Notes under the pieces: generated by a model
Databases searched by the model: none
The model's input: only the letters and a program-made list of their open reading frames with translations
Told to the model about the DNA's origin: nothing
Made by a program: the position numbers and the translations under genes
Shown: piece after piece, positions 66-1,513 of the stretch
Layout of the letters: each line of letters opens with the position of its first letter
How positions within the stretch are numbered: position 1 is the first letter of the stretch
Source of the DNA: Escherichia coli
GTDB lineage: Bacteria; Pseudomonadota; Gammaproteobacteria; Enterobacterales; Enterobacteriaceae
Length of the DNA: 1,513 nucleotides
Assembly (NCBI RefSeq): GCF_003334335.1
Contig: NZ_QOWQ01000104.1
Reading direction: 5' to 3' (one strand)

Positions 66-392
66 TTAGCGCTTATGGGCATACACCCCGACTCTCCTGG
101 CTGTTGCTGACTGCCAGTGCCAGCGTCCTTCAAAACAGGCTCCGTCCCCCTGGCTGCAGAATCCGCTGAACCAGATGCACGGCTCTTCCATAAACCTGCC
201 GTTGCTGAGCCGGATAACACGCTGGCGGAGGTCAATCCCGAAAATGCCACAGACCTCCCTGAAGTCCCCATACGCGTTTTCATACCAGTTGCTGTCAGCA
301 TGATGCTGACGGTACCAGTCGCGGGCTTTTTCCTGTGCGGTGGAGGATAGCTCATTCAGTGTATACACGGTGGTGGTGATAATTCTGCTCAT
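66..392 (-). CDS. Hypothetical protein, 108 aa, unrecognised family; sits where a CbeA-type antitoxin is usually found
   Basis: ORF with ATG at 390-392 and TAA stop at 66-68, co-directional with and 18 nt downstream of the yeeT-like gene, with a plausible SD. The translation looks like a globular protein (W/Y/F-rich, mixed charge, four Cys at residues 48, 72, 79, 86 with C-x6-C-x6-C spacing). It lacks the GARLVQEGN..LHYLADRAG..GSCGYVY features I recall for CbeA/YeeU/YfjZ antitoxins. The alternative overlapping frame (35..355) translates to low-complexity S/G/T/A-rich sequence, so this frame is preferred. Confidence 0.6.
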   Translation of the reverse strand: MSRIITTTVYTLNELSSTAQEKARDWYRQHHADSNWYENAYGDFREVCGIFGIDLRQRVIRLSNGRFMEEPCIWFSGFCSQGDGACFEGRWHWQSATARRVGVYAHKR

Positions 393-410: not shown

Positions 411-632
411 TCAGTTCAGAGTGACGTTCATCAGCCGGACATACGGGCCAAAACTGTCCTTACGGCGTTCAGCAAACACGGCCAGCACACCGGGAATATC
501 CTGCACTTCACGACCGGTATACGCCTCAGCACTGCCGTGCCAGCGGTATTTGCCGGTACAGAAAGGAAAAAGACGGGATGCCGGATGTTGTTGGTGAATA
601 CGCATGGCTTCACCACGGGTGATGATTTTCAT
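411..632 (-). CDS. yeeT: YeeT/YkfH family protein (DUF987), 73 aa
   Basis: 73-aa ORF (MKIITRGEAMRIHQQHPASRLFPFCTGKYRWHGSAEAYTGREVQDIPGVLAVFAERRKDSFGPYVRLMNVTLN) with TGA stop at 411-413 and a good SD. Its length and position immediately downstream of the radC-like gene match the yeeS-yeeT / ykfG-ykfH arrangement in E. coli cryptic prophages. Confidence 0.85.
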   Translation of the reverse strand: MKIITRGEAMRIHQQHPASRLFPFCTGKYRWHGSAEAYTGREVQDIPGVLAVFAERRKDSFGPYVRLMNVTLN

Positions 633-694: not shown

Positions 695-1171
695 TTAAAG
701 CAGACCATGTTCGGCAAAGGAGAAAACCTGGTTGCCACCGACTATCAGATGGTCCGGCACCCGGATATCCACCAGGCCCAGTGCCTGTACCAGACGTTCC
801 GTGATAAGGCGGTCTGCCTTGCTGGGTGTGACTTCACCGGACGGGTGATTGTGCGCCAGCACCACGGCAGCGGCATTGTGGTACAGGGCGCGTTTAATCA
901 CTTCCCGGGGATGGACTTCCGTGCGGTTGATGGTGCCGGTGAAGAGGGTTTCACCGGCAATCAGTTGATTCTGGTTATTCAGATACAGCACCCGGAATTC
1001 TTCACGCTCCAGTCCCGCCATGTTCAGAATCAGCCATTCCCGTGCCGCACGGGTGGAGGTGAAGGCCACGCCGGGTTCATGAAGATGGCGGTCCAGAGTT
1101 TTCAGGGCCCGCAGAATGAGACTGCGCTCGCCGGGCGTCATCTCTCCGGGCAGAAAGGAAAGTTGTTGCAT
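695..1171 (-). CDS. yeeS: RadC-like JAB/JAMM domain protein (DUF2466; YeeS/YkfG/YfjY family), 158 aa from the SD-supported start; alternative start at 1186 gives 163 aa
   Basis: Continuous minus-strand ORF with TAA stop at 695-697. Translation contains the JAMM signature HNHPSGEVTPSKAD (H-x-H-x7-S-x2-D) with an upstream Glu (NRTEVHPRE). It is short and lacks the N-terminal helix-hairpin-helix region of chromosomal RadC, as is typical of the prophage paralogues. K-12 paralogues are annotated at different in-frame Met starts, so the 5' end is uncertain; the exact paralogue cannot be assigned from sequence alone. Confidence 0.9.
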   Translation of the reverse strand: MQQLSFLPGEMTPGERSLILRALKTLDRHLHEPGVAFTSTRAAREWLILNMAGLEREEFRVLYLNNQNQLIAGETLFTGTINRTEVHPREVIKRALYHNAAAVVLAHNHPSGEVTPSKADRLITERLVQALGLVDIRVPDHLIVGGNQVFSFAEHGLL

Positions 1172-1178
1172 TGTGCTT

Positions 1179-1184
1179 CTCTCC
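1179..1184 (-). promoter_or_regulatory. Shine-Dalgarno-like GGAGAG upstream of the second in-frame ATG of the radC-like gene
   Basis: Minus-strand sequence reads ATGGAGAGAAGCACAATG. GGAG lies 9 nt upstream of the ATG at 1169-1171, whereas the first ATG at 1184-1186 has no purine-rich motif upstream (TATGCGCATCATCGACTGA). Confidence 0.45.
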
Positions 1185-1186
1185 AT

Positions 1187-1513
1187 TCAGTCGATGATGC
1201 GCATAATGGCGCTGCATTCCGGATGCTGCAGGGCGTAATCCCGCAACCGGTAATAATGGACCGTCATGGCATAACACTCCGTACGACAGGCATGATGACT
1301 GTACGTCATCAGACAGGCAGCAATGCCGGCAGCTTCCGGACTCATTTCAGCGCGGTTACCGTTCATGGCATTGAACAGTACCCATGTTTCGTCATCATCG
1401 TCATCCGGTTCGGGTGCCATAAATGCCCCGCCGTTGTTCAGGGTGTACAGATTCCAGATACCACCGCAGTAGTCTTCACACAGACGGTCCATCCAGCCGA
1501 AGACACGGGGCTC
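1187..1513 (-). CDS. klcA: Antirestriction protein, KlcA/ArdB family (YfjX/YafX-like); partial, 5' end beyond window edge
   Basis: Minus-strand frame is open from the window edge (reads EPRVFGW before the first in-window Met at 1492) to a TGA stop at 1187-1189. The translation (LCEDYCGGIWNLYTLNNGGAFMAPEPDDDDDETWVLFNAMNGNRAEMSPEAAGIAACLMTYSHHACR) matches my recollection of KlcA/ArdB-type antirestriction proteins found next to radC-like genes in E. coli prophage islands. About 108 codons are visible; full-length members are roughly 140-150 aa, so about 35-45 N-terminal residues are probably missing. Confidence 0.8.
   Translation of the reverse strand, partial: EPRVFGWMDRLCEDYCGGIWNLYTLNNGGAFMAPEPDDDDDETWVLFNAMNGNRAEMSPEAAGIAACLMTYSHHACRTECYAMTVHYYRLRDYALQHPECSAIMRIID

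Follow-up and report, generated by a model that had tools for sequence, protein, structure and literature searches.

Where an antirestriction gene runs directly into a RadC-like gene on Escherichia coli chromosomal islands, three in-frame ATG codons can lie at the junction, and the question arises which of them starts the second gene and how firmly its translation is tied to that of the first. We addressed this question for a stretch of E. coli DNA of 1,513 nt, referred to as the window throughout, the features of which are collected in Table 1. The reading that we favour, with a probability of about 0.88, is that of a co-transcribed antirestriction/RadC-like junction in a CP4-type island, in which translation of the RadC-like gene begins at the second ATG (ATG2), the GGAG in front of it serves as ribosome-binding site and the spacer between the two genes is non-coding. 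As such, the finding is ordinary and of a kind already known: a standard Shine-Dalgarno (SD)-led start in a tightly packed operon.

Both genes are located on the minus strand, where the junction reads, in the 5' to 3' direction, ...CGC ATC ATC GAC TGA ATG GAG AGA AGC ACA ATG CAA CAA CTT TCC TTT CTG CCC GGA GAG ATG ACG CCC... When read directly from this strand, all coordinates given in an earlier note on the same DNA proved to be correct. The mechanical open reading frame (ORF) that begins at ATG1 comprises 163 aa and has the N-terminus MERSTMQQLSFLPGEMTPGERS... (listed translation MERSTMQQLSFLPGEM...). The frame from ATG2 to the stop codon comprises 158 aa plus stop, and the gap between the antirestriction TGA and ATG2 amounts to 15 nt.

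Table 1. Features of the antirestriction/RadC-like junction and its surroundings in the window.
Feature	Position	Strand	Basis
Antirestriction gene, 3' part (KlcA/ArdB type, Pfam Antirestrict), runs past the window end	1187..1513	-	RefSeq WP_000214307.1
Stop codon TGA of the antirestriction gene	1189-1187	-	sequence
ATG1, in frame, abuts the stop TGA	1186-1184	-	sequence
Intercistronic spacer of 15 nt, ATGGAGAGAAGCACA, non-coding; holds ATG1 and the SD core GGAG	1172..1186	-	entropy, alleles
GGAG, SD core of ATG2	1184-1181	-	sequence
ATG2, start of the RadC-like gene	1171-1169	-	34/34 junctions; RefSeq start 12/12; anti-SD duplex -6.4 kcal/mol
CUUUCC, codons 4-5 (Leu-Ser), predicted partner of the SD GGAGAG (1184-1179)	1157..1162	-	window-allele fold
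GGAGAG, Gly-Glu codons directly 5' of ATG3	1147-1142	-	sequence
Second GGAG, 2 nt 5' of ATG3	1147-1144	-	sequence
ATG3, internal Met codon 11, 10 codons past ATG2	1141-1139	-	sequence
RadC-like JAB-domain gene (yeeS/ykfG/lfgB family), 158 aa	695..1171	-	RefSeq WP_001186726.1; PF04002; TIGR00608
DUF987 gene (yeeT/ykfH type), downstream, same operon-like cluster	411..632	-	RefSeq WP_000692298.1

The full-length antirestriction product, taken from the homologous locus L001, matches PF03230 over model positions 1-92 of 92 (E 3e-37), and the portion encoded within the window is 100% identical to it; the partial protein by itself gave no match to NCBIfam. The RadC-like product matches PF04002 (RadC) over model positions 2-121 of 121 (E 1e-44; residues 43-162 of the 163-aa ORF), and its TIGR00608 score of 148.9 bits exceeds the cut-off of 133.85. 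It contains the stretch HNHPSGEVTPSKAD, and an alignment of four paralogues revealed H107, H109, S117 and D120 to be invariant, which we take to be the JAB metal-binding motif H-x-H ... S ... D. Matches to the window, with identities of up to 100%, are found on chromosomal islands of E. coli, where the genes follow the order DUF905, DUF932, antirestriction, JAB/RadC, DUF987, a hypothetical gene, a YeeU-type antitoxin and a CbtA-type toxin. Of 5,426 complete E. coli genomes, 4,917 carry a similar junction sequence, at a median of three copies and adding up to 14,096 copies in E. coli; strains with precisely the junction of the window include ECONIH1, TW10598 and 2014EL-1346-6. A scan of the window against Rfam (E <= 1) returned just two chance-level matches, none of them at the junction. 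Positions 1-76 of the window represent the end of an IS421 (IS4-like) element that truncates the gene downstream of DUF987; this gene (ORF 392..78, minus strand) is listed as a pseudogene in RefSeq, with its C-terminus missing. At uninterrupted loci it encodes 227 aa (L002, 5122-5805) and is annotated as hypothetical, as DUF8835 or as 'antitoxin of toxin-antitoxin stability system'.

The three candidate codons differ in their ribosome-binding potential. For ATG2, the SD core pairs with the anti-SD at -6.4 kcal/mol and is separated from the start codon by 8-9 nt, within the expected 5-10 nt, and its position is conserved. Nothing SD-like is found upstream of ATG1 (duplex +0.4 kcal/mol), which thus does not qualify as a canonical SD-led start. 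ATG3 is preceded by a second GGAG, whose duplex with the 3' end of the 16S rRNA reaches -6.6 kcal/mol at a gap of only 2 nt. The spacer GGAG had been described in the earlier note as the only SD-like element, which is wrong in view of this second site with its similar pairing energy (-6.6 vs -6.4 kcal/mol). Within the window alone, an SD-like match is indeed unremarkable, since -6 kcal/mol is reached by 11.7% of the 20-mers. What lifts the match of ATG2 above chance is that its position is fixed across homologues.

To make this comparison we retrieved 66 loci, one genome per species, and determined for every locus where the antirestriction gene stops and where the RadC-like gene starts. The type with a TGA stop and a 15-nt spacer is represented by 34 unique junctions, which stem from about 20 genera of Enterobacterales plus the E. 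coli alleles. ATG2 is invariant in all 34, and it is exactly at this codon that codon-like conservation sets in. Resolved by codon position, the entropy amounts to 0.25/0.13/0.72 in radC and 0.21/0.11/0.51 in the antirestriction gene, whereas the spacer shows values of 1.00/1.19/0.75 (mean 0.98, coding flanks 0.11-0.72) without any codon periodicity. Among the 20 spacer alleles there are three homologues (L022, L023 and L030) in which an in-frame TAA lies in the stretch from the ATG1 position to ATG2. The spacer positions 3-6 vary least, with an invariant G at position 6, and an SD core in the form of GGAG, GGAGG, AAGGAG, AGAGG or GGGGG is found at a constant place. Downstream of ATG2, in contrast, codons 2-10 encode the invariant residues Q3, S5, F6, L7, P8 and G9, and the changes at third positions are synonymous. 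The conservation analysis that the earlier note had proposed has thereby been carried out, with the result that the sequence 5' of position 1171 does not evolve as coding sequence. ATG2 is the start for this reason.

The same comparison shows how ATG1 is distributed. It is confined to one sublineage, made up of the E. coli alleles A, B and C, E. albertii and one metagenome-assembled genome (MAG). In 21 ykfG-type junctions its position is occupied by CCG, ACG, AAG, CCA, ACA, CTG or AAA, and two E. coli alleles of 92-94% identity have AAG. In this E. coli/E. albertii sublineage, ATG1 would have arisen by substitution at those two positions of the spacer that vary most. Lacking an SD of its own, it would add at most five residues (MERST) to a minor product, while ATG3 is an internal methionine.

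When E. coli alleles are compared with one another, 4-7 of the 15 spacer positions (27-47%) are different and the coding flanks diverge by 2-6%, with differences of 6-13% at third codon positions and about 1% at first and second positions; Fisher p values for spacer versus third-position divergence range from 0.004 to 0.02. The 15-nt spacer (1172-1186, compared with L072-L081) diverges faster than synonymous sites, and its length is constant. This suggests mosaic exchange or relaxed constraint, combined with a constraint on spacing. A second peculiarity is seen in codons 5 and 6 of the RadC-like gene (TCC TTT), which are devoid of third-position variation in the 34 unique junctions, compared with a mean third-position entropy of 0.72. 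The pyrimidine tract (1157-1162 and 1154-1156) is anti-SD-like, and its predicted pairing with the SD is limited to some of the alleles.

In the remaining junction types, the spacer measures 8, 9 or 11 nt, which places the two genes in different frames, and the stop codon is part of the SD (TAAGGA, TAAGGAG; examples are TAAGGATACTCATGATG and TAAGGAGTTTTGCCATG). The lfgB/yfjY type has a tandem ATGATG 8 and 11 nt past the stop (L004, 3378-3392), which is kept in most loci with an 8-nt spacer. In two species, represented by L038 (about 1170-1500) and L051 (about 1200-1500), the distance from the antirestriction stop (1171-1173 and 1201-1203, respectively) to the RadC-like start further 3' is about 270 nt, compared with the usual 8-15 nt, and the intervening DNA opens with an ATG-led reading frame (ATGAAC/ATGAAT AGT GAA GAA CTG TCC...). 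One Cedecea colo copy (L030, about 1550-1560) carries an in-frame TGA near codon 17 of the RadC-like gene (GAC TGA CGT) and is therefore probably a pseudogene.

The start in RefSeq coincides with ATG2 in all 12 E. coli records that were compared, i.e. the two best matches and ten sampled records ranging from 99% down to 92% identity. The invariant codon, the conserved SD and the agreement with RefSeq bear out the proposal of the earlier note that ATG2, served by the spacer GGAG, is the real start. As far as sequence comparison reaches, the relatives settle the 158-aa form, and the RefSeq start is already right. The RadC models of NCBIfam were considered as a means of placing the N-terminus; their matches begin only at residue 39-41 and are therefore silent on the start. 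A literature search combining ykfG, yfjY and yeeS with ribosome profiling returned no start-site data. In our reading, the spacer with the ribosome-binding GGAG begins right after the antirestriction stop, and translation of the RadC-like gene proceeds from ATG2. Since the SD is conserved, initiation at this codon is likely to be SD-dependent, either de novo or after termination.

From this layout we infer that the antirestriction and RadC-like genes are co-transcribed. This is well supported because the window is free of promoter-like sites, the gap between the genes in this family measures 8-15 nt, and the paralogous genes lfgA and lfgB have been described as belonging to one operon, in which an lfgA::kan insertion appears to be polar on lfgB (PMC10846083). 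An internal promoter or terminator between the genes was considered and discarded: the search for promoter-like sites in the window found none, and the single terminator-like site of the window (610-622) is on the other strand.

The degree of translational coupling calls for a more cautious wording. It had been stated in the earlier note that the arrangement implies coupled translation, which is an overstatement, as the real start lies 15 nt past the stop and thus falls into the range of +11 to +20 nt. Huber et al. 2023 found this range to be gene-specific and omitted it from their comparison of gene-pair classes (PMC10666635). In their reporter assays with three native E. coli pairs, a gap of +14 nt led to a loss of 40-80% of reinitiation and a gap of +38 nt abolished it, and the peak of E. 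coli gene pairs at about +10 nt was judged more likely to reflect independent initiation (PMC10666635). Reinitiation required an SD in four of five tested E. coli pairs, where its removal caused a reduction by 60-100% (PMC6728339). If a coupled pair is defined by an overlap of stop and start or by a gap not exceeding about 10 nt, ATG2 with its 15 nt lies outside, and only the non-conserved ATG1 (0 nt) lies inside. A ribosome terminating at the TGA would sit over the SD and ATG2, so that some termination-reinitiation is possible; at a distance of 15 nt, initiation at ATG2 is probably also independent of upstream translation. Judged from the sequence, translational coupling may occur, probably in a partial form, and is not implied by the arrangement.

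A stricter form of coupling would result if the CUUUCC of codons 4-5 masked the SD, and ATG2 became accessible only after the hairpin had been melted by a ribosome engaged in translation of the antirestriction gene. For 46 + 13 junctions, we compared the computed accessibility of the SD with that in synonymously recoded controls. In the window allele, the GGAGAG is predicted to pair with the CUUUCC, giving the GGAG an unpaired probability of 0.00 in a 96-nt local fold, and the accessibility of 0.17 compares with 0.36 in synonymous recodings (1-5% tail). The constant third positions of codons 5-6 would fit this picture. However, the SD of the sister alleles B, D and E is no less accessible than in the controls (0.46-0.50 vs 0.34-0.53), no effect is seen in the 8-nt type (0.48 vs 0.46) and the 11-nt type (0.39 vs 0.40), the ykfG type is mixed (0.21 vs 0.32), and the 141-nt region as a whole folds with no unusual stability (z = -0.57). 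Since the predicted masking is limited to the window allele and some ykfG-type copies, the hairpin is probably neither a conserved feature nor a family-wide coupling device, and we regard strict coupling by this route as unlikely.

Rather improbable, in our view, is a dual start in the lineage that possesses ATG1. Here, ribosomes leaving the TGA would reinitiate at ATG1, yielding a MERST-extended 163-aa form beside the 158-aa form, and the RadC-like output would be tied to the translation of the antirestriction gene. In the sequence TGAATG, the distance between stop and start is 0 nt, which is within the range of -8 to +10 nt that is predictive of reinitiation (PMC10666635). As this is the most efficient geometry for reinitiation, a minor 163-aa product may exist. 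ATG1 is in frame, eight of the ten E. coli copies that were sampled possess it, and the three spacer alleles concerned (A, B and C) keep it despite up to 4/15 spacer differences, although these copies are closely related. The 163-aa form is, moreover, recorded on four contigs. On the other hand, ATG1 is without an SD, and the finding that SD removal reduced reinitiation by 60-100% in 4/5 E. coli gene pairs (PMC6728339) argues against its efficient use. No ykfG-type homologue possesses it, two E. coli alleles lack it as well, and the hypothetical five-residue extension (MERST, MEAGT, MERSI or KGAGT) changes non-synonymously, also among the first three of these variants. One may speculate that in the TGAATG sublineage the stop-abutting ATG captures terminating ribosomes, so that the synthesis of a 163-aa protease with the MERST extension would keep a constant ratio to that of the antirestriction protein, and a recent tight coupling would have been placed on top of the ancestral SD-led start; we consider this scenario unlikely as well.

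The start ambiguity pointed out in the earlier note does exist in the databases, where all three lengths are on record for the exact protein. An exact look-up found the 158-aa form on at least 1000 contigs, the 148-aa form on 814 and the 163-aa form on 4. The 148-aa calls derive partly from K-12-like loci and partly from junctions that are base-for-base identical to that of the window (L082, L085, L088 and L089). One could thus take ATG3 for the real start of a 148-aa protein, as in K-12 yeeS and many deposited annotations, the more so as its GGAG shows the anti-SD pairing of -6.6 kcal/mol and some of the 814 contigs have the identical intact junction. This is nevertheless very improbable. The GGAG is only 2 nt away from ATG3, and ykfG-type genes read GGCGAG where the window has GGAGAG. 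Ten of the 34 unique junctions have ATA (Ile) in place of ATG3, codons 2-10 are conserved as protein with synonymous variation, and K-12 yeeS begins at ATG3 only through a replaced 5' end. The GGAG before ATG3 is the likely reason for the 148-aa calls, and at identical junctions these ATG3-based calls are an annotation error that has spread over many assemblies. Least credible of all is a read-through of the UGA to give an antirestriction-RadC fusion: stop, spacer and RadC-like gene share one frame in all junctions of the 15-nt type, and in many of these the base after TGA is C, which makes for weak termination in E. coli, but an in-frame spacer TAA in L022, L023 and L030 (about 1483-1500) would block the fusion, the genes are in different frames in the 8-, 9- and 11-nt types, and the spacer is free of coding constraint.

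With ATG2 as the start of the RadC-like gene, hundreds of deposited records are 10 codons too short and a few are 5 codons too long. For cloning or tagging of RadC-like or LfgB-type proteases, the 158-aa form is advised. The comparison decides among three in-frame ATGs of a very common E. coli island gene, and its value lies in annotation hygiene.

The junction in the window can be related to two sets of known systems, namely gene pairs with termination-reinitiation and the paralogues of E. coli K-12. The pairs investigated by Huber et al. (2019, 2023) are likewise co-directional and separated by very few nucleotides, and their SD lies at or beside the upstream stop. The window junction differs from them in that the start is 15 nt from the stop, outside the range of -8 to +10 nt that is treated as predictive of coupling (PMC10666635).

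As for the K-12 paralogues, all of which lie in cryptic prophages, the lengths given in the earlier note are correct: yeeS has 447 nt (148 aa), ykfG 477 nt (158 aa) and yfjY, now lfgB, 483 nt (160 aa). These differences had been taken there as a sign of start ambiguity. Reading of the three junctions yafX-ykfG, lfgA-lfgB and yeeR-yeeS rules this out and reveals real sequence differences instead. YeeS (CP4-44) is the closest protein, with 99% identity over 148 aa, yet yeeS has no upstream antirestriction gene, and ATG1, ATG2 and codons 1-8 have been replaced by yeeR sequence. The homology between yeeS and the window begins at GGAGAGATGACG, and the DNA upstream of it is yeeR. The gene is annotated from ATG3 and has a 4-nt ATGA overlap with yeeR (L005, 2200-2330). 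K-12 yeeS is a genuine 5' truncation without its native start region or antirestriction partner, and it starts at ATG3 only because its 5' end was replaced.

The pair lfgA-lfgB (yfjX-yfjY, CP4-57) shares the gene order with the window and lies within the described operon lfgABCDE; LfgB reportedly acts as a protease in the degradation of the antitoxin MqsA (PMC10846083). This junction differs in having an 8-nt spacer, an SD overlapping the TAA stop (TAAGGA), a tandem ATGATG start and another N-terminus, and LfgB (160 aa) is 73% identical to the window protein. The pair yafX-ykfG of CP4-6 shares with the window the gene pair, the TGA stop, the spacer length of 15 nt, the place of the SD and the start ATG, and YkfG, like the window protein, has 158 aa, with 82% identity. 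Its spacer, CCGAAGGAGCAACAG, has a stronger SD (AAGGAG, -8.0 kcal/mol), and with CCG at the ATG1 position there is no ATG after the stop. The junction of the window thus corresponds to the yafX-ykfG junction plus two substitutions that create an in-frame ATG directly after the stop.
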